A stretch of DNA of 64,000 bases from positions 67,308 through 131,307 of the forward strand of contig CAZGXN010000002.1 in NCBI GenBank assembly GCA_964530135.1. Reading direction: 5' to 3'. The notes beneath the pieces were generated by a model. It saw only the letters and a list, made by a program, of their open reading frames with translations. It did no database searches and had not been told where the DNA came from. The DNA is from an uncultured Bdellovibrionales bacterium (lineage in GTDB: Bacteria; Patescibacteriota; Minisyncoccia; Moranbacterales; UBA1568). Both the position numbers and the translations under genes were made by a program. Positions within the stretch are counted from its first letter, which is position 1. Each line of letters begins with the position of its first letter. Below are positions 30,629-63,088 of this stretch, in pieces.

Positions 30629-30752
30629 ACTGAATTTTTGGTGTCTTGATGTTTTTATTACCAAACCGGTCGAGCGAGAGGTGTTTTCATTTCCGAACGA
30701 AGTACCAGCGAAATGAGAAGCGCTTCACCAGACATCTCAGGAAACAAATAAC

Positions 30753-30795
30753 CCACACAAACAGAACGCTCCTCACAACACACGATTCATGAGTG
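30753..30795 (-). terminator. Inverted repeat between the pilX-like and pilM genes (terminator or attenuator candidate).
   Basis: acagaacgctc...gagtgttctgt 11/12 IR; on the minus strand it is followed by a T-rich ttgtgtgggttatttgtttcc. Confidence 0.3.
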
Positions 30796-30821
30796 TTCTG
30801 TTTCTATCATAGCATGCACCA

Positions 30822-32240: not shown

Positions 32241-32866
32241 AGTGACTTGAGATTACGAAGGTCTGCAAACGATTCTATGTTGATATTATTCGGTGCCTTA
32301 ATCGGGTCGATATTCATCCGAATGAATACTCGCACCAGTCGGACATCTTCAATCGCGATTGGTGTCGGGATAGGATTGTTTACCGTATCCCCGGGATAAT
32401 TTTCATTATAGTAATAAAAGAGAGGTTCGGTTGACTCATTCACAATGTAATCTGCGAGTACCGTCGTCGTCCCATCACCCGCCGCATAGGTCGGTGGCTG
32501 AGTCGAGGACGGTTCTCGCACCCCGCGCATCAATCGATCATTCGTCGCATCCAACCAATAGTGAACGCGTTCGGTGACACCGTCATTATCAATATCCAAA
32601 TACACCTGTAAATCAAAATCGTCTCCGGACTCGACTGGATAGTCGCCATTATCCGCTTGGCGTACTTTCCGTAAATTCTTGATGATGTCGCTTGAAGCCC
32701 GATTAACCTGTATCGCTGTTACGCCTGTTTCCAAGATAAATTTATTGCTTTTCCAACTGCTGGAAAAGAGGAGTGTGAAACCGAGCATTCCCGCAGCCAT
32801 GATAAAAATCGCCACGATCATTTCGATCAGCGTCAATCCTCTCAAGCGTTTCCGATAAATTCTCAT
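32237..32866 (-). CDS. Type IV pilin-like protein (prepilin-type N-terminal cleavage/methylation domain).
   Basis: MRIYRKRLRG|LTLIEMIVAIFIMAAGML... class-III signal with Glu at +5. Confidence 0.7.
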   Translation of the reverse strand: MRIYRKRLRGLTLIEMIVAIFIMAAGMLGFTLLFSSSWKSNKFILETGVTAIQVNRASSDIIKNLRKVRQADNGDYPVESGDDFDLQVYLDIDNDGVTERVHYWLDATNDRLMRGVREPSSTQPPTYAAGDGTTTVLADYIVNESTEPLFYYYNENYPGDTVNNPIPTPIAIEDVRLVRVFIRMNIDPIKAPNNINIESFADLRNLKSL

Positions 32867-32882
32867 AGTCAGAAATACTATT

Positions 32883-34262: not shown

Positions 34263-34270
34263 AGGGAGGG

Positions 34271-35494
34271 TTACTTGATATTTTCGAGCACACTATACAT
34301 CGGCTGCAACATCGCAACCGCAAAAAATCCGACTGTACTTCCGATCAGGAGCATAAGAATCGGTTCGATAATGGATGACATATTTTTTGTAATCTGAGAG
34401 ACTTCTTCTTCATAAAATTCTGCGAGACGCTGAAGAACATTTTCTGTTTTTCCTGTTTCTTCACCAACCTGGATAATCTGAGGAACAAGAATCGGGAAGA
34501 TGCTTGGGTATTGACCGATGATTTTTGAAAGCTCGGTCCCCTTTTGAATTTCTTCAATCCCTTTCATTAATGCCTCTCGATAGTAAACGTTGCCCAATGT
34601 CCGTGAGACGATGGTCAATGCGGTAACCACTGAAATACCACTCTTTAAAAGTGAACTATAAATGCGGGCAAAACGAGCGCAATTCACCTTAATGACGATA
34701 CTACCGATAATGGGCATCCGCAGTATTATCCAATGAAGCATATGCCTCCCCGCATCAGTTTTTGACAGAATCCGAAACCCGACTGCTGACCCGATGACAA
34801 TCCCGAGGGTCAGAATCCAATGCGTCCGGATAAAATCCGACAGATTGATGATAAACTGAGTCGTCGCCGGCAGCTTCACTTCCATATCGATGAAGACCTG
34901 TGTAATCTTTGGTAGGATGTATGTCAGCATAAGAATACCGATACCGATCATTGCGACGACGATCACGGCCGGATAAATCATTGCTCCACGCACCTTCGAA
35001 AGCAAATCATTCTCTTTTTCAAGCTGCAGCGCCAGGATGTCAAGAATCTCCTCCAAATTACCTGAGATCTCTCCAACCGAAATCATGCTGACGAAAAGCT
35101 CATTAAACACGCTCGGGTACTTGGCCAACCCCTCGGAGAGCTGCTTACCTGCCTGGACATCATCATGGACACTTTGCAGGATTTTTTGAAAGCGACGATT
35201 GCTCGTCTGCAAGGAAAGATTGTGGATGGCTCGCGATACCGTCAAGCCAGACGATGTCATGACGGCGAGGTTACGAGTAAAAACCATCTTTTCCTTCAAC
35301 GGAACCGTCATGAATCGCTCAAGGAACTTGACTTGAGTTCCCTCTGACGCTTCTTCAATACACTTTATTGATGTAACCAAAAAACCCTGGGTTCGGAGCT
35401 CTTGTCCGACCTGGTTCTCATCTTTGCCGACAATTTCTCCACCCTTCGTTTCACCAGTAGAGATATTCTTGGCTGTATACAAATACTTCGGCAT
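34271..35494 (-). CDS. pilC: Type IV pilus platform protein PilC (GspF family).
   Basis: 407 aa, duplicated GspF domains, 3 TM, N-terminus MPKYLYTAKNISTGETKGGEI... typical PilC. Confidence 0.85.
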   Translation of the reverse strand: MPKYLYTAKNISTGETKGGEIVGKDENQVGQELRTQGFLVTSIKCIEEASEGTQVKFLERFMTVPLKEKMVFTRNLAVMTSSGLTVSRAIHNLSLQTSNRRFQKILQSVHDDVQAGKQLSEGLAKYPSVFNELFVSMISVGEISGNLEEILDILALQLEKENDLLSKVRGAMIYPAVIVVAMIGIGILMLTYILPKITQVFIDMEVKLPATTQFIINLSDFIRTHWILTLGIVIGSAVGFRILSKTDAGRHMLHWIILRMPIIGSIVIKVNCARFARIYSSLLKSGISVVTALTIVSRTLGNVYYREALMKGIEEIQKGTELSKIIGQYPSIFPILVPQIIQVGEETGKTENVLQRLAEFYEEEVSQITKNMSSIIEPILMLLIGSTVGFFAVAMLQPMYSVLENIK

Positions 35495-35543
35495 GGCCGT
35501 TTCGTTGGTGTTTCTTTTCCTCTAGTATAGCATGCAGAAAAAT

Positions 35544-36470
35544 CTACGATACCAAGAGGCCGTGCACAGCCAGACGCTCCTTGAAACGATCGAAGACAGC
35601 TGGGCCCTTGGGACACGGCAAAAAAATAAGTGCCTGATCATTTGCAACGATAAAAGCGCCGGGTGTCTGAGATTTTGGGTTTTGTTCGATTTTTTTCTTC
35701 TGCCAGGAAGATAACTTCACTTCCCACCCCTCCCAAGAAAAAAGCTGTTCCAGCAAAAGACGCAGTTTCAGTTGAAGGCGAGATGCTGAATGCAACCAAA
35801 AATTCGGCAATGTCGTGGGCTGATAGGTTGGCTTCAATCGGGCCATCCAGCGATTAGCCAGCTCGAAATGCCGTTCGGTGTCCCGCCCAACCAGCGTGTA
35901 CATGAAACGATACTCGCTGGCAGAAAAATAATCCTGCATCGCAATTTCCAAACTTGCATCGGTAATAAAATAATTGAGACAAGCCCGATTCTCAACGTAA
36001 CGGCCATGCCGACGCTTACCAAAAAGCTGAAGTACCAGTGATAATGCCGTTCGACCACGCCAAATGGCACCGCCTGAGAGCACAACGAAGAAGTCCCAGT
36101 CACTCTCATGATCACCTCGTTTCATCGAGAGGCTACCTGTCAATGCGATCATCCGTACAAAGGGAACCCAAGCCAATTTCCAGGCCAGCGCGGCCGCACG
36201 ACGAATCTTGGGTACAGCATACTTTTCGCTCCGAATCCGAGCTGACACCAGAAGCTCACGCTGCGGCAATATGAGAAATCCACTCAAACGAGTAATCGCC
36301 CCAAGGGCTACAAGACCATCAAGTACACCCGAAACCTGCCCCAGTGTCGGAGCTTCTGACGATACTTCATCGTGAGTCGCGATGAGGTGCTTCCACACCT
36401 CAAACGCAGTCATCGGATAATCCAACGCATCATAGTAGACGATTGTTGCCAGAACTGTTTTTCGCAACAT
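35544..36470 (-). CDS. Hypothetical protein with nucleotidyltransferase-fold (Pol-beta-like) signature.
   Basis: ...TGSLSMKRGDHESDWDFFVV... fits hG[GS]-x9-13-[DE]h[DE]h; 308 aa, no P-loop; immediately upstream of pilC. Confidence 0.4.
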   Translation of the reverse strand: MLRKTVLATIVYYDALDYPMTAFEVWKHLIATHDEVSSEAPTLGQVSGVLDGLVALGAITRLSGFLILPQRELLVSARIRSEKYAVPKIRRAAALAWKLAWVPFVRMIALTGSLSMKRGDHESDWDFFVVLSGGAIWRGRTALSLVLQLFGKRRHGRYVENRACLNYFITDASLEIAMQDYFSASEYRFMYTLVGRDTERHFELANRWMARLKPTYQPTTLPNFWLHSASRLQLKLRLLLEQLFSWEGWEVKLSSWQKKKIEQNPKSQTPGAFIVANDQALIFLPCPKGPAVFDRFKERLAVHGLLVS

Positions 36471-36482
36471 ATAGTCGTACCG

Positions 36483-39290
36483 CTACAGATACTTCCCCGT
36501 AAAACTTGTTTTCACCTTCTTGAGTTTTTCGGGAATCCCCGCGTACACCACTTGTCCACCCCGTTCCCCGCCTTCAGGACCCATATCGATTACCCAGTCT
36601 GACGCACGAATAACATCTATGTTGTGCTCGACGACCAACACGGTATTTCCTTTATCGACAAGTGCATTTAAAACCTCAAGCAGTCGCCGCACATCTTCGA
36701 AGTGAAGACCAATAGTCGGTTCATCGAGGATATACAGTGTCTTCCCAGTTGATTTTCGGGCCAGCTCCGTGGCCAGCTTGATGCGCTGAGCTTCACCACC
36801 TGAGAGATTGGGTGCACTCTGCCCCAAAACGAGATATCCCAGGCCGACTTCCTCCAAGACCCGAAGTTTCTCTTCAATCATCGGCTGGTCGAGAAAGAAA
36901 TGCCGCGCTGCCGAAACAGTCAGTCGCAGCACTTCAGAAATATTCATCCCCCGATACTGAATCGCCAATGTTTTCGCATTGTAACGCGTCCCATTACAGA
37001 CTTCACAAGGAATATAGACATCTGGTAAGAGATACATCTCGATCTTTTTCAATCCACCACCCTGACAGACTTCACATCGCCCACCGCGCATATTAAAACT
37101 AAAATAAGACGCCGAGTACCGTTCCTTAACGGCTTCAGGTGTCGCGGCAAATACATCTCGAATAAGACTAAAAATACCGGTATAGGTTGCCGCATTGGAA
37201 CGCGGTGTTCGGCCAATAGCATCCTGAGTAACCGTGATTACTTTATCGATATGCTCAATCCCACGCAACGCAGTATGTTTACCTGGGTCAGTTCGAGCCT
37301 GGTAGAAATGTCGGGACAAGGCTCGAGAGAGAATATCATGCACGAGTGTGGATTTGCCCGAACCAGAAACACCAGAAACCGCAACAAATTTTCCGAGCGG
37401 GATTTCAACGGTTACCGCTTTCAAATTGTGTTCCGTTGCACCCTCGATAGAAAGCGACTTCCCCGAACCCGTGCGGAGTGTGTCACGCTTCATAACCAAG
37501 CGTTTGCCTGAGAGGTATTGGCCCGTGAGGAGTTTTGATTTCATGAGTTTTTCCGGTGTACCCGAAAAAATAATCTCACCGCCTTCCCGACCGGCACCCG
37601 GGCCAAGATCAATAATCCAATCAGCTTTCCGCATAATTGCTACATCATGTTCGACCACGACGAGAGAATTATTGGCACCCCGCAGTTCCTCCAATGCTCG
37701 AATAAGCCGGTCCGTATCGCGACTATGCAGTCCAACCGAGGGTTCGTCGAGGACATAGATAATACCTGAAAGTCCCGACTTAATTTGGACGGCCAGTCGA
37801 ATACGCTGCGCTTCACCACCCGAAAGTGTATCCGCACTCCGCGAAAGTGAGAGGTAGCCGAGACCGACCTTGTCAACCGCCATCAGGCGCATCTCCATTT
37901 CATTAAACAATGGTTCTACCAGAGATTTTTCCTCACCATCCGAAAGGAGTTTGGATCGCAAATCTTTGAAAAATATCCGAAGATCCTCAATCGAGCGATC
38001 AACAAAAGCATTGATATTTTTGTCTGCAATATAGACCGAGAGCGATTCGGGGCGGAGTCGCTTCCCCTCACAATCCGAACAGCGCCGCATAAACATAAAA
38101 GTCTCAATCTCGGCGCGCAGATGATCCGACTTCGTCTCACGATATTTTCGTTCGAGCAAACCAAGCACCCCGGGAAATCCAAATTCATCCGTTGGATCAC
38201 GCCGAGCATCACCCCGAAGAATGTATTCTCGCTCTCGCGCTGTCAATTTTTTTACTGGGACATCCAGCGATATTTTCTCACGCTTGGCCATCTCCCGAAA
38301 CAGTGTCATTGGACCATTGCCATTTCCCCGATCACTATTCATCTTGCTCCAGGGACGGATAGCACCCTCAGCGATCGAAAGTGTATCATTTGGGATAACG
38401 AGCGCTGGATCAAATTCGAGTGTCACGCCCAAACCACCACAGGTCGGACAGGCACCCTCGGGACTATTGAATGAAAAGTGGGCTGGTGAAAACTCGGGGA
38501 GCTCAATCAAACAAGTTTCACACCGATACCGCTCGTGATAATTATGAAAATGCCGACCATCAACAAACAGGCGCATAACTCCCTGACCCGTCTGAAACGC
38601 CGTATGGATCGAATCAAGCAAGCGTTCTTTGTCCGGACGCACTGAATCAAGAGTTAATCGGTCAATAATGACGAGACAATTCGCCGGTGCGGCTGGATCA
38701 ACGCGATTCTTAAGCTCCGCTAGCGAAATCGCCGTTTCAGCGTACCAGACTCGAACGAAACCCCAATCATCAATGAGATCCATAGCTTGCTGCCAGGTCT
38801 TTCCGATAAGTAAGGGGCTTTCCGCAGCCAGCACCAATTGCGACCCGCTCGGCAATGTGAGAATCTCATTCAGAATTGTTACGGCTGTCTTGCGTGAGAG
38901 CGTCTGATCACACTTCGGACAATGGGGCTGACCAACTTTTGCAAAGAGCAATCGGAGGTAGTCATACACCTCAGTCATAGTTCCGACCGTCGAACGCGGA
39001 CTGCGCGACACGCTCTTCTGATCAATCGAGATAGCCGGCGAGAGATTACGAATCGTATCGACATCCGGCTTGTCATAGCCCTCCATGAAATTTCGGGCAT
39101 AGGCCGAGAGGCTCTCAACATAGCGCCGATTCGCTTCAGCGTACAAGGTATCAAAAGCCAATGATGATTTTCCTGACCCCGAAAGTCCCGTAACGACGAC
39201 CAGGCAATCACGTGGAATATCAATATCCACATTCTTTAAATTGTTTACCCGGGCCCCGCGAATCTCGATGACGCTCTTTTTTCCAGGCAT
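36483..39290 (-). CDS. uvrA: Excinuclease ABC subunit A (canonical, with insertion domain).
   Basis: 935 aa, two ABC modules, [17 protein letters not shown], three Zn modules (CPKC/CETC, CPTC/CSDC, CEVCQG). Confidence 0.95.
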
Positions 39291-39396: not shown

Positions 39397-40707
39397 TTAT
39401 CCCTGAAGAAATTGCGCGCGTTTTTTCTTGCGATGAAAACGGATCGCGAAACGATGCGCCTCGGCATTGGCCAAGAGGATGTCTTTCTCGAACCGTTTGA
39501 CTAACCCGCGCGGCCCGATGATGTGATCCGGCTGGTGCTTGGCATTCTTCACGACACCAACGACCGGAATCGTCAGTCCCTTCTTCTTTAAAATCCGAGT
39601 GGCCACATCCGACTGCAGGAGTGCCCCGTCAACAACCATGAGTTCGGGGAGTATCCATTCACTATGTGCCAGACGACGAGTCAGGATTTCCTCCAAAGCT
39701 GATAGGTCATTGCCACCGTGAGCGTTGCGCAATGTGAACAGTCGATACTCACTCTTCTTGGCCAGGGCGTGCTGCACGACAGTCATGACACCAACGGTCG
39801 CCTCACCCTGGAGATGCGCCGTGTCATAGGCCTCGATCCGTGCGGCCGAGCTTTCCTCACGATCAAGCTTCATGAGTGCGACATCACGAATATGCCCGAG
39901 ATCGAAGAGGAGTCGTTTGATCTCGTTCGCTTTTTCAAACCGCAATTCCTTCGCCGCGACTTTCATTTCACGCTCTAGATTCTTCACGAGATCTACTTTC
40001 TTGCCGCTGAAGAAGAGTACGATCCGTTTCACAGTCTTCCGATAGTCGACCGCTGAGACCGTACCGACGCAGACACCCGGGCATCGGCCGATCTGTGCTT
40101 GAAAGCATGGCCGTGCTTTTTTCTTCTGTTCATCTGTAAGTTCAGCGTACGGTACACATTTGTCGCGGTACGGAAAGATCTGCCGCACAATCTTGAGTGC
40201 CGTCCGGAGTGCTTCCCCACGCGTATACGGGCCGAACCGCTCCTTAATTGGTGCCGTGAACTTCCCCGTCTCGATATCACGCTCGCGAACAAGGAGGACG
40301 CGCGGAAAATCTTCTTTCGTGATGACAACGAAATTATAGCTCTTGTCGTCCTTGGCATCGGTATTGTAGGGCGGCTGATGCTTCTTGATGAGCTGCCCTT
40401 CGCGAAGAAGTGCTTCGAGGATAGAGTCGAGCGGGATCCAGGCAATCGCAACGGCTCGTTCCAGCATAAGGACGAGCTTCGGCCCGCGCGTCTCGGCCAA
40501 ATCAGGACCGAAATAACTCTTCACACGATCCGACAAAATGGTTGCCTTGCCAATATAGAGAATTTCATCACCCGCCCCAAGAAAAAAGTACACGCCCGGC
40601 ATTTCGGGCAGTCCCGCCAACAACGCCAGAAGTGCAACTCTTGCAGACTGGGTGTTTTCCTTGCGGAGGCTCGCAATACTAATTTTCTTCTCCCAGGGAT
40701 GGATCAT
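39397..40707 (-). CDS. uvrC: Excinuclease ABC subunit C, short form lacking the C-terminal (HhH)2 domain.
   Basis: GIY-YIG (GVYFFLGAGDEILYIGKATILSDRVKSY), Cys-rich CFQAQIGRCPGVC, UVR-like RFEKANEIKRL, RNase-H-like RIEAYDTAHLQGE; ends without an HhH2 segment. Confidence 0.8.
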   Translation of the reverse strand: MIHPWEKKISIASLRKENTQSARVALLALLAGLPEMPGVYFFLGAGDEILYIGKATILSDRVKSYFGPDLAETRGPKLVLMLERAVAIAWIPLDSILEALLREGQLIKKHQPPYNTDAKDDKSYNFVVITKEDFPRVLLVRERDIETGKFTAPIKERFGPYTRGEALRTALKIVRQIFPYRDKCVPYAELTDEQKKKARPCFQAQIGRCPGVCVGTVSAVDYRKTVKRIVLFFSGKKVDLVKNLEREMKVAAKELRFEKANEIKRLLFDLGHIRDVALMKLDREESSAARIEAYDTAHLQGEATVGVMTVVQHALAKKSEYRLFTLRNAHGGNDLSALEEILTRRLAHSEWILPELMVVDGALLQSDVATRILKKKGLTIPVVGVVKNAKHQPDHIIGPRGLVKRFEKDILLANAEAHRFAIRFHRKKKRAQFLQG

Positions 40708-41094: not shown

Positions 41095-41838
41095 TCATAC
41101 CCCCCGCTTCATTCGGGCATCCGTGTAGACACAAAACTCACAGTTCGGTGCCGCCGCAGGTGCGGTATCCGCCATGAGACACTCCTTTGCCTCATAGATG
41201 ACGCCCTCCACCCACTCGTCATTGCCATCATAGGCGATGAGATGAATATCGAATTCAAGTTTTGCGTCAAATGCTTCTTTATCTGTTCCGGCATTACAAT
41301 AAACAAAGTAGCCTGTTGATGAAACTGCATAGCCATTCGACCGGAGCAGCCATTGATATATCTCCATTTGGCGGCGATAGGCATTGTGCCAGCCGTCATT
41401 GAGCTTGTCGATCACTTCCGCTTTACTCGTCGCTTTGTAATCAACCACGATGTACTCATCGCGCGAATTGATCCACAAATCATCGATCGCTCCCGTGATG
41501 ATGAGATTCGTCGGTCGATGGTGATACTGCACGCCCTGAAAATTCTCGCGCCAGATGTCGAGATCAGCGTGCGCGACCGGCCGGGCATCGATGCCGTACT
41601 TTTCCAAAAGCGGGTGCTGGGTCGATGCCGCACGATGAATGTCGAACTCTTTCTTGAGCAATGTATCGACGGCTTTGTTCAGATTGAACGGTGGACCCTG
41701 TGGTTGCCCAACTCCGAGCCGCCGGTCAATATAGAAGCAGCGCGGACAGGCAAGGAACTGTTCGAGCTTAGAGCGCGAGAGCTTGAACGCCGACTCGGAT
41801 TTTGGATCAAATATATTTCGGGAACGTAGGATAGCCAT
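41095..41838 (-). CDS. PD-(D/E)XK nuclease, Cas4/RecB-like, with CxxC...CxxC metal-binding pairs.
   Basis: N-terminal CPRC, core ...GAIDDLW...EYIVVDYKATSK (D-x-EYK), C-terminal CEFC; 247 aa. Confidence 0.6.
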   Translation of the reverse strand: MAILRSRNIFDPKSESAFKLSRSKLEQFLACPRCFYIDRRLGVGQPQGPPFNLNKAVDTLLKKEFDIHRAASTQHPLLEKYGIDARPVAHADLDIWRENFQGVQYHHRPTNLIITGAIDDLWINSRDEYIVVDYKATSKAEVIDKLNDGWHNAYRRQMEIYQWLLRSNGYAVSSTGYFVYCNAGTDKEAFDAKLEFDIHLIAYDGNDEWVEGVIYEAKECLMADTAPAAAPNCEFCVYTDARMKRGV

Positions 41839-52586: not shown

Positions 52587-53933
52587 TCAGCCTGATTCTT
52601 TTCGGATTCGTTCCAGCGCTTCCAGCCACAAATCCACTTTTTGTCGATTGATGTGCCGCGCATATGGAGACAAATTTCTCCAGGCACGCGCCAGGGCGCC
52701 CATCACACCCGGCTGACTCATTCCGAGCTCACGAGCAGTTACCACAAGGGTCTGTTTCCGTCCACCGATCTCGAGGCCATAGTGATGATTGAATACTGCA
52801 TACTGTGCCTCGGTCAGCCGCTCCTTGGCTGTCGCTTGCAGCATACGCATCCGTTCCTTGAGCAGTGCGAATTCGACATCTCTCGTTTGTTGATGAATTG
52901 GGACTGGGCGTTTGATGGCTCGAGATAACACCTCCGACCAGATAATCTCCGTACCCGCCAATTCTTCGAGAAGGTGTACATTCTCAAGAAAATGGAGAAA
53001 TGTTTCTTTTGACAGAATCGGGGTGGATCTCTCCCAGATGTCCTGAACTACCTGCCGAATGCGTTCGCGAGTGACAGAAAAACATTGTCCCACAGATTCG
53101 AGTGTTTTTCTGTGCCGATCCGAATCAAGACCATACACCGCAACAAAGATTTGATAGTTGCGTTCACTGAACTCAGTCCACACCCAATCAAGTAAGCGGC
53201 CGATTTGTTGAATTGCCTCAGTAAGCCTCTGGCGGGCCTCCAAAACAAGTATCGGTTCAGCAATAGATGTGTCCAAAACCAACTCACCAACGGTTGTGGC
53301 ATCTGTTCCGTCCTCGCTAGACAGGATCGGTGCATCAAGTGAAGTATGCTGCTGTTCAGAAAGAACAATCAGTGCCCGCTGAACTGTTTCGACTTTCATA
53401 TCAAGCCTGGTAGCAATCCGATCTGGGGTCGGACGAATGCCTTGTTCGAGAAGCTCATCTATCGTACTGAGTATATTCCAAACACGAGCACGCATATATG
53501 TTGGAAGTCGGATAAGCGGTCCTGATTCAATCGCTGCTTGTCTAACAAAGTGGCGTATCCATGCGACGGCATATGTGGAAAAGGTATTGCCCAGACTCGG
53601 ATCGTACCGTTCGGCCGCACGCATCAGTCCAAAGACCCCTTCCTGAACAAGATCTTCAATGGGCAGACTGCTCTTCCAGTAACGCTGTGCGACAGAGTAC
53701 ACCAATCCCATGTTATGGAGCACGAGTTTGTCCTTGGCTGCTTGGTCTCCCTGCGCGATACGCCCCGCGAGGAAATTGACTTCAGTAGGCGACAAAACCG
53801 GGAAGTGCTTATTCTCAAACGGCAGACAACGAGGAGTCTGATCTAACCGGTTGGTCGTGGGCGTTTTTTTTTCACCATCAAAAAACAGCTCCTGAGGGAA
53901 AGTCGATAACTGTTCCAGTTCGAGAGTTTTCAT
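52587..53933 (-). CDS. Sigma-70 family RNA polymerase sigma factor with an apparent second region-4-like HTH.
   Basis: Region 2 (DLVQEGVFGLMRAAERYDP...FSTYAVAWIRH), region 3, region 4 (ESVGQCFSVTRERIRQV), then a second LTEAQYAVFNHHYGLEIGGRKQTLVVTARELGMSQPGVMGALARAWRNL. Confidence 0.8.
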   Translation of the reverse strand: MKTLELEQLSTFPQELFFDGEKKTPTTNRLDQTPRCLPFENKHFPVLSPTEVNFLAGRIAQGDQAAKDKLVLHNMGLVYSVAQRYWKSSLPIEDLVQEGVFGLMRAAERYDPSLGNTFSTYAVAWIRHFVRQAAIESGPLIRLPTYMRARVWNILSTIDELLEQGIRPTPDRIATRLDMKVETVQRALIVLSEQQHTSLDAPILSSEDGTDATTVGELVLDTSIAEPILVLEARQRLTEAIQQIGRLLDWVWTEFSERNYQIFVAVYGLDSDRHRKTLESVGQCFSVTRERIRQVVQDIWERSTPILSKETFLHFLENVHLLEELAGTEIIWSEVLSRAIKRPVPIHQQTRDVEFALLKERMRMLQATAKERLTEAQYAVFNHHYGLEIGGRKQTLVVTARELGMSQPGVMGALARAWRNLSPYARHINRQKVDLWLEALERIRKESG

Positions 53934-54449: not shown

Positions 54450-54950
54450 TCACTGCGAGCTCTGCACACTCCGACGATAGTAGCCGACCAGCGTCGCTTC
54501 AGCTATGACATTGCCCAACAAGGCATTGCGCAACATGAGATCAGTCGCCTCCACAGGGAGATGAAGCGCATGGCGAAGGGCATACAGATGAAAGATATAA
54601 GTATGTTCGCCTTGATGCGGACACGGGCCACCATACGCTGCTTGACCAAAGGAGTTTATCCCTTGAATGGCGTCTTGGGGAAGCGAGTTTTCTTTGATAT
54701 ATGTCGTGCGGGGGTGAATGTTCCAGACACGCCAGTGGATCCAATGCCCACCGGGTGAGTCCGGATCCTCTACAATAAGCGCCAGACTTTCAGCGTCTTC
54801 GGGTACATTCTCAATCGTGAGCGGCGGATTAACATCACGACCTTCACAAGTATACTCGCGCGGAATCTGCTCGCCATATGCAAAAGCTGGACTATGTACA
54901 CGAAATGGTGGTTTTTCGAGGACGCGTTCCATCATACTGTTTTGTTTCAA
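54450..54950 (-). CDS. YbhB/YbcL family PEBP (Raf-kinase-inhibitor-like) protein.
   Basis: ...VEDPDSPGGHWIHWRVWNI... and ...GQAAYGGPCPHQGEHTYIFHLYAL... Confidence 0.8.
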   Translation of the reverse strand: MKQNSMMERVLEKPPFRVHSPAFAYGEQIPREYTCEGRDVNPPLTIENVPEDAESLALIVEDPDSPGGHWIHWRVWNIHPRTTYIKENSLPQDAIQGINSFGQAAYGGPCPHQGEHTYIFHLYALRHALHLPVEATDLMLRNALLGNVIAEATLVGYYRRSVQSSQ

Positions 54951-54986
54951 ACAAACACTCTTTCACACCCCTATCCTAGCATGAAC

Positions 54987-57572
54987 TTACTTTTGACGAA
55001 GTACTGACTTCAGGTAGCGACCCGTATGGGAACCATCGGTCTTGGCGACCATTTCCGGAGTTCCAGTGGCGATAATTTTTCCACCACCCGAGCCACCTTC
55101 CGGTCCGATATCGATGATATAATCCGCTGATTTGATCAGATCCATATTGTGTTCGATGACCATAACGGTATTGCCCTTCACCACCAGCCGATCAAGGATC
55201 TCGATGAGTTTTCTCACATCGGCATAGTGGAGCCCAATCGTCGGCTCATCAAGGAGGTATATAGTCCGTTCAGTCGACTGACGATACAGCTCGGAAGCGA
55301 TCTTCACACGTTGGGCTTCACCGCCCGAGAGTGTTGTCGCAGACTGGCCGAGCTCAAGATAACCAAGCCCAACTTCATTTAAAGTCTTCAATCGATCAGC
55401 AATGGCCGGAATCGCATAGAAAAATGTATACGCATCCTCAATAGTCATCGAGAGTACTTGGTGAATATTCTTCCCCTTGTAGGTTACTTCGAGAGTTTCT
55501 TTGGTAAACCGCTTGCCATCACAGACATCACAGGGTACATAGACTGTCGGAAGGAAGTGCATTTCAACGGCAATAAAACCATTCCCTTCACATGTCTCAC
55601 AACGGCCACCCGGACGATTGAATGAAAAACGGCCCAATTTCCAACCCCGAACCCGAGCCTCTTCTGTCGAGGCAAACAGGTCTCGAATATGATTGAAGGC
55701 ACCCGTATAGGTCGCCGGATTCGAACGCGGCGTGCGGCCGATGGGGCTTTGGTCAATCATCACGACGCGTGAGAGATATTCTGTTCCCGTAAAAGTATCA
55801 CAGTGTTCAACCTGATGTGTCTTGTATCGGCGATCGAGACGGCCCTGGAGATTCCGGTGAACGATCTCATACAGAAAGGATGATTTACCCGATCCCGAGA
55901 CACCCGTAACAGCGATAAAACGGCCGAGTGGGATATCGACACTGAGATTTTGAATATTATAAATACGGCCGCCGCGAATCTTCAGACTGCCTTTCTCTTT
56001 GCTTCGGCGTTCGGGAATCGGGATAGACTCCTCACCACGTAAATACGCGAGTGTCAGCGATCCAGATGGGTTCGTCTTTGCAGTCAAAAGGTCCTCAAGA
56101 AAACCCGACACCACAACTTTGCCACCATGCACCCCCGCACCTGGGCCGATATCGACAATAAAATCAGAAGCAAAGATAGTGTCTTCGTCGTGTTCGACGA
56201 TAATAATCGTATTTCCGAGTGCCCGCAGAGACTTCAATGTTTCAATCAACCGTTCATTATCTTTTTGATGAAGGCCAATTGTCGGTTCATCGAGCACATA
56301 CAGTGCCCCAACGAGCTGACTCCCGAGCTGACTCGCAAGCCGGATACGCTGCGCTTCACCCCCCGAGAGCGTATTGGCCCGTCGATCAAGCGTCAGATAG
56401 TTGAGACCAACATTGAGGAGGAACTGGAGCCGGCTACTGATTTCACGCAGCACGACTGAGGCAATCTGTTCCTCACGCTGAGTGAGGCTCAGGGTCGTGA
56501 AAAAATCAAAAGCCCGCGCTGTCGTGAGGCGCGTCAAATCAACGATATTTTGACCACCTAGTTTAATATGAAGCGCTTCCTCACGAAGCCGTGTACCATT
56601 ACACACCTCACATGGCTCTGCTCCAAAAAAATGCTTGGTGCCAAGACCATTACATGCCTGACAAGCGCCCGAGGGTGAGTTAAATGAAAAGAGTCGTGGC
56701 TCGACCTCAGGATAAGAAAATCCATCATACGGGCAAGTAAATTTTGCCGAAAGAAGAAATATTTCGTTACCGATACTTACCTTCACAATACCCTCAGCTT
56801 CTTCGAGCGCTTTTTGAATCGCTTCCGAAAGTCGGATCTCCGTATCATCCTTATAGTCTCGGAAATCTCGCGCGAGGAATTCATCTACAACGAGATCGAT
56901 ATCATGTTTGAAATTCTTCTTTAATACAACTTGCTCGCGGAGACTTTTTCGCTTTCCGTCGAGAAAAATCGAAACAAATCCACGACTGAGTGCGTTGTAT
57001 AACATCTGATAGTACTCGCCCTTTCGACTCCGGACTACCGGCGCAAGGACAATAACCGGTGCCTCAGCTTGATTACGCTCCTCCAAAACAGCGTGAACTT
57101 TTGTTTTCACCGTTTCCAACATTTCTTCCGTCGAGAGCCGTGAGATCTCACGGCCACACTCGAGACAGTGTGGCCGACCGAGTCGAGCGTAGAGGACTCG
57201 AAGGTAATCATAGATTTCGGTCACCGTCGCAACTGTCGAGCGCGGATTCCGACTGGCTGATTTCTGATCAATGGAGATCGCTGGTGAGAGTCCGGTGATT
57301 TCGTCGACATCCGGTTTTTGCATCGTATTCAAAAACTGCCGAGCATATGCCGAAAGACTTTCGACATACCGACGCTGACCCTCAGCGAAAATCGTATCAA
57401 ACGCAAGTGAGCTCTTGCCAGAGCCAGAGAGACCAGTAAAAACGATCATGTGATTCCGTGGCATCTCGACCGTGATGTTTTTTAAATTATGTGTTCGAGC
57501 ACCCTTGACGACGATCCACTCCGATGGACCGGTGAAGGATTTCTGTTTCTTGGATCCCTTTTTTTCAGGCAT
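54987..57572 (-). CDS. UvrA paralog (861 aa) lacking the insertion domain.
   Basis: Same ABC/Zn architecture as uvrA ([17 protein letters not shown], ...); between ACQACNGLG and CEVCNGTRL only ~9 residues versus ~110 in uvrA at 36483..39290. Confidence 0.85.
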   Translation of the reverse strand: MPEKKGSKKQKSFTGPSEWIVVKGARTHNLKNITVEMPRNHMIVFTGLSGSGKSSLAFDTIFAEGQRRYVESLSAYARQFLNTMQKPDVDEITGLSPAISIDQKSASRNPRSTVATVTEIYDYLRVLYARLGRPHCLECGREISRLSTEEMLETVKTKVHAVLEERNQAEAPVIVLAPVVRSRKGEYYQMLYNALSRGFVSIFLDGKRKSLREQVVLKKNFKHDIDLVVDEFLARDFRDYKDDTEIRLSEAIQKALEEAEGIVKVSIGNEIFLLSAKFTCPYDGFSYPEVEPRLFSFNSPSGACQACNGLGTKHFFGAEPCEVCNGTRLREEALHIKLGGQNIVDLTRLTTARAFDFFTTLSLTQREEQIASVVLREISSRLQFLLNVGLNYLTLDRRANTLSGGEAQRIRLASQLGSQLVGALYVLDEPTIGLHQKDNERLIETLKSLRALGNTIIIVEHDEDTIFASDFIVDIGPGAGVHGGKVVVSGFLEDLLTAKTNPSGSLTLAYLRGEESIPIPERRSKEKGSLKIRGGRIYNIQNLSVDIPLGRFIAVTGVSGSGKSSFLYEIVHRNLQGRLDRRYKTHQVEHCDTFTGTEYLSRVVMIDQSPIGRTPRSNPATYTGAFNHIRDLFASTEEARVRGWKLGRFSFNRPGGRCETCEGNGFIAVEMHFLPTVYVPCDVCDGKRFTKETLEVTYKGKNIHQVLSMTIEDAYTFFYAIPAIADRLKTLNEVGLGYLELGQSATTLSGGEAQRVKIASELYRQSTERTIYLLDEPTIGLHYADVRKLIEILDRLVVKGNTVMVIEHNMDLIKSADYIIDIGPEGGSGGGKIIATGTPEMVAKTDGSHTGRYLKSVLRQK

Positions 57573-57577
57573 ATCAG

Positions 57578-58303
57578 TTAGTTTCGTTCAAAAGAATGTT
57601 GAATAAATGTGCATTCATGGTCACGCTCTGGATGAACAACACATTCTACAGTTTCCTCGGGCGGGAGTGATTCAAGTGCATGGAAAAATCGTTCCTTCTG
57701 ATTAATCCAATCGAGACTTACCAGATAGGTCGAGGTCGCCAGTCCAGCCGCTGCAAAACGCCGGTGATTTTTCTGATTGAGCCGAGAGAGAATATGTCCG
57801 ATCGCCGCATGATGAAGCGATACCAACATCCCGCGCTGACCAAAGCGGACATGGGGTATGCGAAACTCATGTGCAAGCGTGAGCGCGAGCGGGAAAAAAC
57901 TTGGGAAAAAATGGACATGCTCGTGACTATTCAATCCGTCCGGGTATCGGCCAAATAACTCATAAAAACGCTCAATTTGGGAACGCCATTCAGCCGCGAC
58001 TGCCTGAGGTGACATATACCCCATAAAGTAGCGCACCACAAAATGTACTCCCCGCCGCAGAGTCCCATGCCCCGTTTCGGCACCGCGAGCCATCAGACTG
58101 ATGAGATCGAGATGGATATCAATCTTCACCCCTGTCGCCGCCAGAGCCACTGCATCTGCCGGACTACAGTAGTGAGTCATGACGGCGACCCGCTGTAATA
58201 CACCAGACTGCGCCAATGGCAAAATCCGACGGACTGTGTCCCGAATACCATAATCATCGGCGGAGAGTACGAGACGCGCTTTGGCTCGTTGAGAGATATG
58301 CAT
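57578..58303 (-). CDS. ChbG/HpnK (YdjC) family carbohydrate deacetylase-like protein.
   Basis: ARLVLSADDYGIRDTV..., conserved His/Asp positions, 241 aa. Confidence 0.6.
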   Translation of the reverse strand: MHISQRAKARLVLSADDYGIRDTVRRILPLAQSGVLQRVAVMTHYCSPADAVALAATGVKIDIHLDLISLMARGAETGHGTLRRGVHFVVRYFMGYMSPQAVAAEWRSQIERFYELFGRYPDGLNSHEHVHFFPSFFPLALTLAHEFRIPHVRFGQRGMLVSLHHAAIGHILSRLNQKNHRRFAAAGLATSTYLVSLDWINQKERFFHALESLPPEETVECVVHPERDHECTFIQHSFERN

Positions 58304-58328
58304 AGCAAAGATTGAGGATAGCAGAAAT

Positions 58329-58682
58329 TTACTTTTTCGGAAAGACGACTCGGTTACGGACTAGGGTAATGCCCTCGCGCATCAGTCGTTGAACTTTGAC
58401 ACTCGTCCCACCAAATGCATACTCGCCAACCGCTCCATCGGATCGAACAACCCGATGACAGGGTACATCCTGATAACAATTTTCACGCAATGCCGTTCCA
58501 ACCGCCCGTGCCGCTTTTGGGACACCAGCGAGCCGCGCGACTTCGCCATATGTCCGAAACTGACCAGGCCGAATTTGAGCGACAACCGCATAGACTGCTC
58601 GACGAAAATGAGAAAGTCCCAGCGCTTTTTTATAACTTCTCTGGGATGGAGTATGCAGGGAAAGAATGGGCATATTGATCAA
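58329..58682 (-). CDS. ogt: Methylated-DNA--protein-cysteine methyltransferase (Ogt/MGMT C-terminal domain).
   Basis: YGEVARLAGVPKAARAVGTALRENCYQDVPCHRVV: HTH plus PCHRV active-site Cys. Confidence 0.85.
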   Translation of the reverse strand: MINMPILSLHTPSQRSYKKALGLSHFRRAVYAVVAQIRPGQFRTYGEVARLAGVPKAARAVGTALRENCYQDVPCHRVVRSDGAVGEYAFGGTSVKVQRLMREGITLVRNRVVFPKK

Positions 58683-59159
58683 ATCAACATTTATTCACTG
58701 ATTGCAAAGGCAGTTTGAAGATCTGTATTTGCCCTGGCTCGTTCCGCCTGAAATATCTGTACCGCATCTGCAAAACTCTTTTTTTGAACTTCAGTCAGAG
58801 ATGTTGCCTCGGTCATGATATCAGCTACAAATTGCTCGTCAGCAGTTCATCCTTCACGACCCGTCTTCAGGCCAGCCTTGAAATCCCTGATTGATGACAC
58901 GCATTGGAACTCCGCTGGCACACTCATCTTCTAGTTTTTTTATCGCCACCGTAACTGAAGCAGCAAATGTATCCCGGGCTGACTACATACGGGCAGCCTG
59001 TTTCAACACAAGCGGATTCATCCCTTTTCGGAAACTTGACAAGAGCAGTATCGCGACCGCGTCACACCGGTGTAAAACAACGCGACGAGAGTGCTTGAAA
59101 AAGAATAATTGAATGTCGTCGCATGAGTGCAGTATACACCGCTTCCAGAAGAGACGAAA

Positions 59160-59186
59160 AAAGCCCATTCGGGCCTTTTTCTCACA
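59160..59186 (-). terminator. Rho-independent terminator (symmetric) downstream of the secreted coiled-coil gene.
   Basis: aaaaaagcccattcgggccttttt: GC stem flanked by A6/T5. Confidence 0.5.
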
Positions 59187-59205: not shown

Positions 59206-60072
59206 TCATGAATTGGTTGTACTGCCCATTGCGGCGCGGAGTTTTTCCTGAGCTGACTTCATAGCTGCTTTGAAGGTTTCAATGGCGGTATCAATGGATT
59301 GCCGGCGAGTTTCAGCCAATGCCTTCACATCATCTCGGATCTTCTCAACCGACCCGCGGTCTGCCTTTAAGGCCGCCCGAGCTGTCTTCACTGCAGCTTC
59401 ATAATTTGAACGGATAGTCTTTGGATCAACGTCATTTTCACAATCTGATTTTGCCTGAGTAGCCGCTGCATCGACCGCTGATTTGAATTTTGCATAATTA
59501 TCAGTTGCATTGCTCTTCCTCGCGGTAACAAGAGCATCCACCGCTGTACGAAAATCCTCAATCGCTTTGTCAATCGCTGCCCGTCGCGCGGCGATCGCTG
59601 CGTCGACCGCTGATTTAAATTCAACCACTGCTGCTTTCTGAGCATCGGTACCCGCTTTTTCACTCAGTTTGGCATACAGCGCAGCCCGCCGTTCATCCTG
59701 TGCTGCACGTTTCGTTTCAAGCTGCTCGTCACGATTGTCCCGACGCGCGGTATGACGACTGACCCGATCCTCAATCCGTCCCTTTACCCGATCAGTCCGA
59801 TTATCCATCCGGTCGCTCCGGTTATCGAGCCGTTCCGTAAACCGAGCACAAAAGGCATCCTGACGCTCTGCTTTTTTTTCCTCCTTCTTTTCCTCCCAGT
59901 CAGCCTTGCGTTCTTCCAAGCGAGCCTTGGCTTCTTCGGCGCGCTGAGTAAATCGCGTATTCGCACCACCCTCTGATTCAGCCGAAACAATGAGTGGTGA
60001 TCCCAAAATAGCCGCCATTGAAAGAACGGACAGGAAACGTTTTGTAAGAGTCGTATTCATACGCTTTGTCAA
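59206..60072 (-). CDS. Secreted coiled-coil protein with internal DRxD/NR repeats.
   Basis: Signal peptide MTKRMNTTLTKRFLSVLSMAAILGSPLIVSAESEG; Ala/Glu/Lys/Arg-rich heptad-like sequence; repeated RLDNRSDRMDNRTDRVKGRIEDRVSRH encoded by imperfect ~15-nt DNA repeats (~59760-59830). Confidence 0.55.
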   Translation of the reverse strand: MTKRMNTTLTKRFLSVLSMAAILGSPLIVSAESEGGANTRFTQRAEEAKARLEERKADWEEKKEEKKAERQDAFCARFTERLDNRSDRMDNRTDRVKGRIEDRVSRHTARRDNRDEQLETKRAAQDERRAALYAKLSEKAGTDAQKAAVVEFKSAVDAAIAARRAAIDKAIEDFRTAVDALVTARKSNATDNYAKFKSAVDAAATQAKSDCENDVDPKTIRSNYEAAVKTARAALKADRGSVEKIRDDVKALAETRRQSIDTAIETFKAAMKSAQEKLRAAMGSTTNS

Positions 60073-60082
60073 ACATTACAGA

Positions 60083-60439
60083 TTAATTTCCCTCTTCGAG
60101 ATCAGCCATCTCATCTTCTCCAAGAGCCGAGAAATCCTCCCGATCGGCGAGGGCTTCATCAATGAGATCAGCAGTGGCGGTATCGGGCGTAACCGTAGCT
60201 GGCAATGGTGTCGTTGCTACGGATGATGGCGCTGCCTGCTTTTCTGTTTTACCCATACTATCCGATGTTGGCATCATCGGGTTTGTTGCAGATGGACTCG
60301 GCTGATCCTGCATACTGTACTGAGTATAGATCAATGCCAGTATGACCAGCATGAGAAAGAGCGCGAATCCAAAACCCAACATTCTTCGAGGTATCATAAT
60401 GTTTGTTGTGTATATTAATGAATTACCCGCACTCTGCAC
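60083..60439 (-). CDS. Small bitopic membrane protein with Thr/Pro-rich linker and acidic C-terminal tail.
   Basis: TM GFGFALFLMLVILALIY; 10-nt gap to the coiled-coil gene. Confidence 0.45.
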   Translation of the reverse strand: MQSAGNSLIYTTNIMIPRRMLGFGFALFLMLVILALIYTQYSMQDQPSPSATNPMMPTSDSMGKTEKQAAPSSVATTPLPATVTPDTATADLIDEALADREDFSALGEDEMADLEEGN

Positions 60440-60976: not shown

Positions 60977-63043
60977 TCACCCAGACACATCATGTTGACT
61001 GGGGTTTTTTTTACGTACATTCGCCGTCTGTCGAGCCTCAAGTGCCCGAATCTCATCCCGCAAGATAGCTGCCGTTTCAAAATCGAGCAGTTTCACCGCT
61101 GCCCTCATCTCTCGCTCTTTGGTACGGATGATCTTTTCTGGATCCCGAGCAAAACCTTTGGCATCAAGCGCGAGTGAAACAGCGACCGCCTTGTCGTGCT
61201 CGCTCTGAAGCTTTTCAGTAATATCATGGATGTTCTTGCGGATAGTCCGAGGGGTGATCGCGTGCTCAGTATTGTAGGCGAGCTGAAGCGCCCGTCGTCG
61301 AGCTGTCTCACTCAACGCATACTCAATCGACGATGTTGTCCGATCAGCGTAAAGTATTACCCGCCCCAGGACATTTCTCGCCGCCCGACCGATAATCTGA
61401 ATGAGCGATGTTTCGGAGCGGAGAAATCCCTCCTTGTCTGCATCCAAGATACCGATAAATGTTACTTCCGGCAGGTCCAGTCCTTCTCGCAAGAGATTCA
61501 CACCGACAAGACAATCAAACTCCCCTTTTCGAAAGCGAGTAAGGATCTTGATACGGTCGATCGTCAACACATCACTATGAAGATATTCGGCTCGGATATT
61601 TTTTTCTTTGAGATATTGTGCCAAGTCTTCAGCCATTTTCTTCGTCAGAGTGGTCGCGATCACACGGCCACCTTTTTTCACTTCGTTTTCAGTCTCACGG
61701 ATAAAATCTCCAATCTGGCCCGGATAGTCAGCCCTCGCCTGAATCGGCCGAATAGTAACTTCGGGATCGAGGAGTCCCGTTGGACGGATAACCTGCTCGA
61801 CAGTCTGCATACTCACTGTACGCTCGTACTCAGCTGGGGTCGCCGAAGTAAAAACGATGGGTCCAACCCGTTCGAGAAATTCCTCATACCGCAGCGGACG
61901 ATTATCCAGCGCGCTCGGGAGACGGAAACCAAAATCAATGAGGGTTTTCTTTCGGGCTTGATCACCATGGTACATCCCTCGGAGTTGCGGTAGCGTAACA
62001 TGCGATTCATCGATGATCGTCAGAAAATCCGGTGATCCATCTGGCAAATGTGGGAAATATGAAAGCAATGTTTCGGGTGGTTCACCGGCACTTTTCCCCG
62101 AAAGATGCCGCGAGTAATTTTCAATCCCTGAGCAATATCCAATCTCGTCAATCATCGCAAGATCATAGTGAGTCCGACGCTTCAGTCGTTCGGCCTCAAG
62201 GAGCTTCCCCTCCCTTGCGAATTCCTTGAGCTGCCAATCGAGCTCTTCGCGAATCGTTACCAATGCTTTTTCCTTTTTGTCCTGATCGGTGATAAAATGT
62301 TTGGTCGGAAATAAAATGATAGCATCTTCTTTCCGCAGAACAGTCTGTGAAACGGGATCAATTTTAGTTATCGCTTCAATCCGATTGGCACCGAGCTCAA
62401 GAGCATAGATATATTTCTCGGAAATCGGCATCACTTCAATCCGATTGCCAATCGCCCGAAAATGGCCAGGGGTGATATCGGCATTGGTCCGCTCGAAAAA
62501 GATAGTGATGAGACGACGAAGAAGGGTTTCGCGAGTGATGATTTCACCAACAGACAGTTTAATATTTTCCCGCAAATATTCTTCGGGACTCCCGAGACCG
62601 TAAATACAAGATACCGAAGCGATGATGATGACATCTCGCCGTGTCAGCAGCGACTGGGTCGAAGCATGCCGGAGCCGATCAATTTCTTCATTGATCGAAG
62701 CGTCTTTCTCGATATAGGTATCGGTGATCGGCATATACGCTTCCGGCTGGTAAAAATCATAATACGAGACGAAGTAGTGAACCGCGGCCGTAGGAAAGAA
62801 GACTTCAAATTCTTGAGCGAGCTGAGCCGCTAGAGTCTTATTGTGTGCGATGACGAGCACCGGACTTGCCTGTCGGGCGATCACATTGGCCATCGTAAAT
62901 GTCTTGCCTGATCCCGTAACACCAAGCAATGTCTGAAAGCGGTCGCCGCGATGGAGACCGGTCATGAGGGATTCAATCGCCCCCGGCTGATCTCCCGCCG
63001 GCGGCCAATCAGATTTCAATTGAAAGAGTGGTGTGTGCTTCAT
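60977..63043 (-). CDS. uvrB: Excinuclease ABC subunit B; start at the internal MKHTPLFQL.
   Basis: FQLKSDWPPAGDQPGAIESL, LLGVTGSGKTFTMANVI, DESH, UVR domain LRDEIRALE at the C-terminus. Confidence 0.95.
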   Translation of the reverse strand: MKHTPLFQLKSDWPPAGDQPGAIESLMTGLHRGDRFQTLLGVTGSGKTFTMANVIARQASPVLVIAHNKTLAAQLAQEFEVFFPTAAVHYFVSYYDFYQPEAYMPITDTYIEKDASINEEIDRLRHASTQSLLTRRDVIIIASVSCIYGLGSPEEYLRENIKLSVGEIITRETLLRRLITIFFERTNADITPGHFRAIGNRIEVMPISEKYIYALELGANRIEAITKIDPVSQTVLRKEDAIILFPTKHFITDQDKKEKALVTIREELDWQLKEFAREGKLLEAERLKRRTHYDLAMIDEIGYCSGIENYSRHLSGKSAGEPPETLLSYFPHLPDGSPDFLTIIDESHVTLPQLRGMYHGDQARKKTLIDFGFRLPSALDNRPLRYEEFLERVGPIVFTSATPAEYERTVSMQTVEQVIRPTGLLDPEVTIRPIQARADYPGQIGDFIRETENEVKKGGRVIATTLTKKMAEDLAQYLKEKNIRAEYLHSDVLTIDRIKILTRFRKGEFDCLVGVNLLREGLDLPEVTFIGILDADKEGFLRSETSLIQIIGRAARNVLGRVILYADRTTSSIEYALSETARRRALQLAYNTEHAITPRTIRKNIHDITEKLQSEHDKAVAVSLALDAKGFARDPEKIIRTKEREMRAAVKLLDFETAAILRDEIRALEARQTANVRKKNPSQHDVSG

Positions 63044-63088
63044 ATCAAGGGGTAAAAAAAGAAAAACAGTCCGATCACACAAATGAAA

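Follow-up and report, generated by a model that had tools for sequence, protein, structure and literature searches.

A natural insertion-domain-less variant of the excision repair sensor UvrA, predicted across Parcubacteria, and its divergent full-length paralog in Moranbacteria

We studied a 64,000-nucleotide stretch of contig CAZGXN010000002.1 (assembly GCA_964530135.1; hereafter the window, meaning this whole stretch), in which two genes for UvrA, the sensor of UvrABC nucleotide excision repair (NER), lie 15.7 kb apart. One of them encodes an 861-aa protein that lacks the insertion domain (ID; PF17755), a segment of ~110 residues situated between the two Cys pairs of zinc module 2 (Zn2). 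Judged from sequence, the standard NER sensor exists here in a natural, clade-wide ID-deleted (ΔID) form, accompanied in Moranbacteria by a divergent ID-containing (ID+) paralog. The 861-aa protein is probably the orthologous, working class I UvrA of UvrABC excision repair in Parcubacteria, Moranbacteria included. A preliminary description of the same DNA had correctly placed this second UvrA about 15 kb from the other copy and had proposed that it was probably not a standard damage sensor; the conserved functional residues and the uvrB and uvrC neighbours described below speak against that proposal. The gene and its diagnostic elements are as follows.

54987-57572, minus strand: uvrA, ID-less class I type, 861 aa (NF001503; PF17760 present, PF17755 absent)
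56772-57071, minus strand: UvrB-binding domain, residues 168-267 (PF17760, E 3.8e-19, 69 bits)
56724-56735, minus strand: second ligand pair of zinc module 1 (Zn1), CPYD, with Asp for the fourth Cys (from the translation)
56601-56663, minus strand: Zn2 and deletion junction, C304-x2-C307, the 13-aa linker NGLGTKHFFGAEP, then C321-x2-C324 (from the translation)

Profile searches assigned the 861-aa protein to UvrA with high scores: 1243.9 bits against the UvrA equivalog NF001503 (cut-off 1147), for which the 935-aa copy of the window reached 1197.4 bits, and 1178.1 bits against TIGR00630 (cut-off 729.8). In phmmer comparisons with UvrA of B. stearothermophilus (Bst; 2r6f) it obtained 1042.9 bits and the 935-aa copy 971.4 bits. 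The alignment with 2r6f consisted of two blocks that skipped chain residues 305-416, passing from 304 to 417, and the Pfam profile search gave no PF17755 match in the 861-aa protein. Its junction reads CQACNGLGTKHFFGAEPCEVC (window 56601-56663). The loss of the ID, which had been noticed before with an estimated spacing of ~9 residues, was thus upheld, and the interval between the Cys pairs corrected to 13 residues. A diverged ID that is still present was ruled out by these 13 residues and by tblastn searches with four ID sequences, none of which matched within the gene. Provision of the ID in trans from a small gene nearby was rejected as well: the four ID sequences revealed no stand-alone ID gene in the window or in the 80 loci described below, their sole match being the ID inside the 935-aa copy. 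The AlphaFold2 model of the protein (pLDDT 81.6) had as its best match in the Protein Data Bank chain A of 3uwx (3uwx_A), which is Bst UvrA from the UvrA-UvrB complex (TMq 0.86), and the extra columns in the superposition corresponded to the missing domain.

The rest of the protein, 55% identical to E. coli UvrA, retained the parts expected of a class I enzyme. Both ABC modules and the UvrB-binding segment were kept, as the preliminary description held: the catalytic residues were conserved, both LSGGE motifs were present in the alignment and PF17760 was matched. The reported replacement of one Zn1 Cys was likewise borne out, the Zn1 site being made of C136, C139, C280 and D283 (C, H, C and C in E. 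coli), whereas Zn2 and Zn3, with ligands read from sequence, had four invariant Cys each throughout the ID-less family (199 sequences; see below). The ID-less UvrA carries a Lys-rich N-terminal tail ahead of its first beta-strand, e.g. MPEKKGSKKQKSFTGPSE (window 57518-57572, minus strand; also in P0001-P0120, the homologs described next). The median length of the tail was 18 aa in those ID-less proteins, 3 aa in ID+ orthologues of Microgenomatia and 6 aa in the family of the 935-aa copy, named UvrA1 here; in Moranbacteria the tail might add non-specific DNA affinity.

A homolog search among 5.8 billion proteins, from which the best 120 matches were used (P0001-P0120), returned proteins of ~845-945 aa with 75-93% identity, all with PF17760 and all without PF17755; every named member belonged to Moranbacteria or Patescibacteria. 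A scan of one genome per species found at least 576 relatives, and the best 80 loci (65-92% identity) were analysed; they came from Moran-, Paceibacter-, Kaiser-, Taylor-, Lloyd- and Zambryskii-bacteria. The 13-residue Zn2 spacer, of the type NGLGT(K/R)xFFxxE, was found in 80 of 81 loci (23 aa in the remaining one), a shared junction consistent with one deletion in an ancestor and with selection acting on the scar. Many third-party annotation (TPA) records of metagenome-assembled genomes (MAGs) with Moranbacteria- or Parcubacteria-type sequence were titled 'uncultured Bdellovibrionales bacterium' or 'uncultured Candidatus Saccharibacteria bacterium' (e.g. L003-L005, L007, L011, L013, L016, L020 and L025), labels that appear unreliable.

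Residues of 199 ID-less sequences (the 120 homologs plus 79 loci) and of 119 sequences of the UvrA1 type were compared in the numbering of E. coli UvrA. The ATPase positions K37, K646, E514 and E858 were kept in the 199 ID-less sequences, apart from one Q at K646. At the UvrB interface the R216 equivalent was invariant, and that of E222 was E, Q or D. G502, R712 and R730 were invariant or nearly so; R722 and R724 were invariant in the 120 homologs and were R or K in 78/79 and 76/79 loci, respectively.

The gene neighbourhood also connects the ID-less protein with NER. Window proteins were compared by tblastn with the 80 loci (flanks of ±10 kb), all flanking open reading frames were clustered, and the loci were divided into 17 Moran-like ones and 63 with less than 73% identity (non-Moran); all counts below refer to eligible loci. 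The relevant features of the window are these.

60977-63082, minus strand: uvrB, 701 aa, upstream of ogt-ydjC-uvrA (NF003673, 931.6 bits; UvrA-interaction domain PF17757)
59206-60439, minus strand: two small genes between uvrB and ogt, for a 118-aa protein and for a 288-aa coiled-coil or secreted-like protein without a convincing Pfam match
59156-59181, minus strand: terminator-like hairpin just 3' of the 288-aa gene, 11 bp stem and T-run (pattern match only)
39397-40707, minus strand: uvrC, 436 aa, a short form that lacks the C-terminal (HhH)2 domain (PF08459 and PF02151; GIY-YIG matched weakly)

In 51 of 61 loci (11/12 Moran-like, 40/49 non-Moran) a uvrB gene lay upstream of the ID-less uvrA at a distance of at most 5 kb, and uvrC was found directly downstream, within 3 kb, in 44 of 51 non-Moran loci. 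The usual non-Moran order was tgt-uvrB-(sometimes a response regulator)-uvrA-uvrC-ddl, and that of the window is uvrB, two small genes, the terminator-like hairpin and ogt-ydjC-uvrA-PEBP. Homologs of the 288-aa protein occupied the same position in 12 Moranbacteria loci. A scan for promoters and terminators gave counts near the shuffled expectation, with the hairpin at 59156-59181 as the only strong candidate; it likely divides a uvrB unit from ogt-ydjC-uvrA-PEBP.

UvrC is short as well. The window protein scored just below the TIGR00194 cut-off (275.9 vs 285.45), and its alignment with 2nrt, the 220-aa C-terminal construct of T. maritima UvrC, stopped at residue 166. UvrC homologs in ~55 loci had a median length of 414 aa and ended directly after the RNase H-like endonuclease domain. 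The pairing of a short UvrC with a ΔID UvrA suggests a streamlined NER machine in Parcubacteria. A solo Cas4-like PD-(D/E)XK nuclease (PF12705; TIGR00372 below cut-off) is encoded at 41095-41838 (minus strand), ~390 nt upstream of uvrC, and L024, L054 and L059 have homologs of it close to their NER genes.

As to origin, the ID-containing UvrAs nearest to the ID-less clade came from Microgenomatia (Blackburn-, Woese- and Gottesman-bacteria), and each of them had PF17755. Neighbour-joining gave the ID-less clade 100% bootstrap with P0354 included, a deeper ID-less relative of 845 aa and 59% identity whose gene follows uvrB, and put UvrA1 in a separate clade on a long stem. Asp was the fourth Zn1 ligand in 120/120 ID-less proteins, in 77/119 Microgenomatia-like ID+ proteins, in 5/84 modules from diverse representatives and in 0/120 proteins of the UvrA1 type. 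This rare common residue supports the kinship of the ID-less clade with the Microgenomatia proteins, and its presence in both indicates that the change to Asp is older than the loss of the ID.

The other UvrA of the window had been regarded as the canonical copy, but the roles appeared to be reversed.

36483-39290, minus strand: uvrA1, full-length UvrA with insertion domain, 935 aa (PF17755 and PF17760)

The two window proteins shared ~45% identity (44-46% in the alignment; 47% and 41% over the two main BLASTP blocks) and fell in separate clades, so the 861-aa gene did not arise by recent duplication of the other; the preliminary description had likewise argued against a simple gene duplication. 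The UvrA1 family (119 sequences) keeps the ATPase sites, the Zn sites and the ID, and is conserved across Moranbacteria (P0121-P0240; L012, L015 and L082-L084). Its DNA-binding groove has changed, with R722E in 84/119, R724E in 100/119, R730 replaced by H or Y, and G502K in 116/119, and the motifs of its UvrB-binding domain are degenerate (PF17760, 44.8 bits vs 69 in the ID-less UvrA). On contigs that the two genes apparently share, as deduced from equal longest-contig sizes in two hit tables, the ID-less gene was always the better conserved, e.g. 78-80% vs 70-72% identity, each measured against the respective window copy. UvrA1 was always followed by a 308-aa protein without a Pfam match and then by a type IV pilus cluster with PilC/T2SSF, a CarboxypepD_reg protein, a pseudopilin and PilM/N (window 29534-36470; L082 12815-20986; L084 12879-21251); uvrC stood upstream of UvrA1 only in the window, L012 and L015. 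Loss of the groove arginines and of G502, weaker conservation and the pilus-gene context mark the 935-aa UvrA1, by comparison of sequences, as an atypical, divergent paralog that evolves faster than the ID-less copy. The 308-aa protein holds a GS...DxD stretch, GSLSMKRGDHESDWDF, that recalls nucleotidyltransferases.

We infer a repair pathway of the following kind. One ancestral in-frame deletion would have taken out the ~110-residue ID, Zn2 being closed by the conserved 13-residue loop. The ID-less UvrA would dimerise, hold DNA by the groove of signature domain II (the equivalents of R712, R722, R724 and R730) together with the Zn3 hairpin, hydrolyse ATP at its four intact sites and recruit UvrB by means of the UvrB-binding domain, which is intact as well; the incisions would then be the work of UvrB together with the short UvrC lacking (HhH)2. 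By analogy with engineered ΔID proteins, incision would be kept, DNA binding would be less stable and damage would be discriminated less well in an excess of undamaged DNA. The cost of poorer discrimination may, speculatively, be smaller in a ~1 Mb genome, and repair might depend more on transcription-coupled loading. Wagner et al. in 2011 reportedly concluded that the ID stabilises UvrA on DNA and is not essential for discrimination. As for the engineered proteins, E. coli UvrA Δ290-400 supported incision of a lesion-bearing 50-mer as the wild type did, discriminated plasmid damage less well and performed relatively better in Mfd-dependent repair, and Bst UvrA ΔID had no defect in vitro (PMC3025350). 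The joint mutant of R712, R722, R724 and R730 was the DNA-binding-defective control of that study (PMC3025350).

Several points weigh against a working, self-sufficient ID-less UvrA. A cryo-EM study of 2025 called the IDs essential for DNA coordination and coupled their repositioning to rearrangement of the UvrB-binding domain (PMC11985968); if so, the ID-less protein might need some compensation, and we identified none. The non-Moran evidence covers locus flanks, and an ID+ UvrA may lie elsewhere in those genomes; none was found within 8.5 kb downstream in the 29 loci eligible for this count. The ID+ paralog co-occurs in Moranbacteria, so that the ID-less UvrA may not act alone there. Finally, the sister placement to the Microgenomatia UvrAs had only 54% bootstrap in a neighbour-joining tree.

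The co-occurrence of the two paralogs leads to an alternative limited to Moranbacteria, which we regard as possible and rather unlikely: the ID-less UvrA would pair with UvrA1 into an asymmetric sensor with a single ID, comparable to the tandem 'double UvrA' proteins except that the two units are not fused. The division of labour in such a heterodimer, by which the ID-less subunit would provide the groove and load UvrB and the groove-defective UvrA1 would contribute the single ID clamp, seems equally doubtful. The two genes are apparently on one contig in at least 17 cases, by the same matching of hit tables, and in L012 and L015 a distance of 3 kb separates them. Their losses are complementary, one protein having an intact groove and no ID, the other an ID together with R722E, R724E, R730H/Y and G502K. 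Many tandem UvrAs of ~1750-1820 aa, moreover, join an ID+ N-terminal module to a C-terminal module with a Zn2 spacing of 10-33 aa, and in some of them (P0263 and P0328) the groove is degenerate in the ID+ module and kept in the ID-less one. However, the 63 non-Moran loci displayed the same ID-less features in a uvrB-uvrA-uvrC context and no UvrA1 nearby, so a homodimer is presumably sufficient; the neighbours of UvrA1 are the 308-aa protein and type IV pilus genes rather than NER genes; and the tandem analogy is imperfect, since several tandem proteins keep the groove in both modules or have an ID-less module without R216.

A second alternative, proposed in the preliminary description, concerns the genes next to the ID-less uvrA.

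58329-58682, minus strand: ogt, single-domain O6-alkylguanine-DNA alkyltransferase, 117 aa (PF01035, TIGR00589; PCHRV active site)
57578-58303, minus strand: ydjC-family carbohydrate deacetylase homolog, 241 aa (PF04794)
54450-54950, minus strand: PEBP, protein of the YbhB-YbcL family, 166 aa (PF01161, TIGR00481)

The run ogt-ydjC-uvrA-PEBP is indeed co-directional, all on the minus strand, with gaps of 25, 5 and 36 nt that agree with the range of 5-36 nt given before. Ogt had been called a genuine MGMT/Ogt with PCHRV. The PF01035 match (90.9 bits, E 4.6e-26), confined to residues 26-105, and the active site sustained this, the alignment with human O6-alkylguanine-DNA alkyltransferase (AGT) showing the equivalents of Tyr114, Arg128 (the Arg finger, in ARAVG), Asn137, Cys145-His146 and Glu172 kept. 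The protein comprises only the C-terminal domain, however, and without the N-terminal MGMT domain its scores against full-length equivalogs were far too low, e.g. 47.5 vs 192. The deacetylase, announced as YdjC/ChbG-type, belongs to the PF04794 family (110 bits, cut-off 29.7; E 2.4e-31); its scores against the ChbG/HpnK equivalogs were far below cut-off (60.4 vs 227 and 51.3 vs 232.6), and its substrate is left unassigned. The PEBP assignment stood, with 125.3 bits against PF01161 (cut-off 24) and 106.2 against TIGR00481 (cut-off 57.75).

According to that proposal, the four genes would form a dedicated alkylation/adduct-handling or efflux-type drug-resistance operon apart from NER, which we consider improbable, and more so than the heterodimer. 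The short gaps and the terminator-like hairpin upstream of the run are in line with it, as are the complete active site of Ogt and the recurrence of the order inside Moranbacteria, where ogt preceded the ID-less uvrA in 10/14 and ydjC in 12/14 Moran-like loci. Alkyltransferase-like proteins pass O6-alkylguanine lesions to UvrA. Yet the linkage was lost in the other loci (ogt 1/57, ydjC 0/58, PEBP downstream 1/61), so that the recurrence of ogt-ydjC-uvrA held within Moranbacteria and failed elsewhere; ydjC and PEBP were ruled out as conserved partners beyond Moranbacteria, and PEBP even within (2/14). The widely conserved neighbours are uvrB and uvrC, and the protein keeps its UvrB-binding domain, unlike the class II UvrAs of drug resistance. 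YdjC and PEBP carry family annotations without a DNA-related function, and no transporter gene is present in the ogt-ydjC-uvrA-PEBP run. The tight spacing itself carries no weight, because co-directional genes and short gaps are usual in the window: the minus strand carries all its ~51 genes, and 26 of 50 gaps do not exceed 36 nt. Gene order indicates that ogt and ydjC were inserted between uvrB and uvrA specifically in Moranbacteria, and ogt is plausibly part of a loose repair-gene neighbourhood. Three loci that are non-Moran or borderline also have short ogt homologs a few kb or less from the NER genes (L021 15922-16161, L020 8393-8596 and L062 1919-2131), at positions that differ among them, the one in L021 right after ddl.

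That the gene is a truncated pseudogene, or that faulty assembly deleted the ID, is suggested by the unusual length alone and can practically be dismissed: the same architecture and junction occur in hundreds of independent assemblies, homologs across Moranbacteria are 75-93% identical with invariant functional residues, and the ID-less gene is better conserved than UvrA1 on the apparent shared contigs.

Some other features of the window can be mentioned. Directly downstream of PEBP, at 52587-53933 (minus strand), lies the gene of a 448-aa sigma-70 family protein with ~150 extra C-terminal residues past region 4. Further repair or replication genes on the minus strand encode MgsA/RarA (22277-23488) and an exonuclease III-type AP endonuclease (23491-24294). 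GC skew was negative in each 2-kb bin of window 1-64000, and no RNA families, tRNA included, were found in the 64 kb at the Rfam gathering threshold.

The role of the ID has been debated: early ΔID mutants were normal in vitro, later work tied the domain to damage discrimination, and the cryo-EM study of 2025 considered it essential. An ID-less UvrA that occurs naturally across Parcubacteria would be a natural experiment on this role, and the cognate set of ΔID UvrA, UvrB and short UvrC could indicate what minimal bacterial NER needs. Should a whole class perform UvrABC repair without any ID, this would contradict the ID as essential for DNA coordination and UvrB hand-off; should the heterodimer apply, asymmetric UvrA sensors would have evolved repeatedly. 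There is also an annotation problem. Databases name the ID-less protein plainly UvrA, and both it and the groove-defective UvrA1 bear the name "excinuclease ABC subunit UvrA". In a full-text literature search neither a natural ID-less UvrA nor the architecture of UvrA in Patescibacteria was found described, though a brief earlier mention is possible.

Among known systems, the window Ogt resembles Ogt/MGMT and the alkyltransferase-like proteins (ATLs) in its helix-turn-helix DNA-binding domain, Arg finger and PCHRV motif. It has the C-terminal-domain-only size of S. pombe Atl1 (3gva was among the matches) but keeps the reactive Cys (PCHRV, not PWHRV) and hence is no ATL; it differs from canonical Ogt/MGMT by the absence of the N-terminal ribonuclease-like domain.

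The tandem 'double' UvrAs (~1800 aa, NF001885-type) also often have an ID-less C-terminal module, with a Zn2 spacer of 10-33 aa. In them, unlike in the window, the ID-less module is fused to an ID+ one, and in trees it has no close relationship with the Patescibacteria clade, so the ID was apparently lost independently. Tandem proteins of ~1750-1940 aa with an ID+ N-module and an ID-less C-module included P0242, P0252, P0259, P0260, P0293, P0339, P0344 and others, the named ones being from Fibrobacterales and Planctomycetota MAGs. The search for representatives was dominated by such double-length UvrAs, owing to summed bit scores, and gave few single-module outgroups.

Class II UvrAs (D. radiodurans UvrA2, 2vf7; DrrC; Ecm16, 7sh1) are, like the window protein, UvrA-fold ABC ATPases and second copies. 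They lack the UvrB-binding domain and Zn1 and have the ID, the reverse of what was found here, and the 861-aa protein scored 608 and 458 bits against them in phmmer vs 1043 against Bst UvrA. The possibility, left for checking in the preliminary description, that it is a class II UvrA of the drug-resistance type was ruled out by these low 2vf7 and 7sh1 scores, the presence of the UvrB-binding domain and Zn1, and the absence of the ID.

With class I UvrAs (E. coli; Bst, 2r6f and 3uwx; T. maritima, 3pih; M. tuberculosis, 3zqj) the window protein has in common the two ABC domains, the UvrB-binding domain, Zn1, Zn2 and Zn3, the groove arginines, the uvrB and uvrC neighbours and an equivalog score above cut-off. 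It differs from them by the 13-aa loop in place of the ID (about residues 290-400 in E. coli) and by Asp as the fourth Zn1 ligand, and the Moranbacteria ID-less copies also by the ~18-aa Lys-rich N-terminal tail. Close counterparts are also the engineered ΔID proteins (E. coli Δ290-400 and Bst ΔID), which have nearly identical boundaries, with the ID cut out between the Zn2 Cys pairs and the UvrB-binding domain kept, and which still support UvrABC incision on short substrates (PMC3025350). Those are laboratory constructs, whereas the window protein represents a naturally selected form that is conserved class-wide, linker sequence included.

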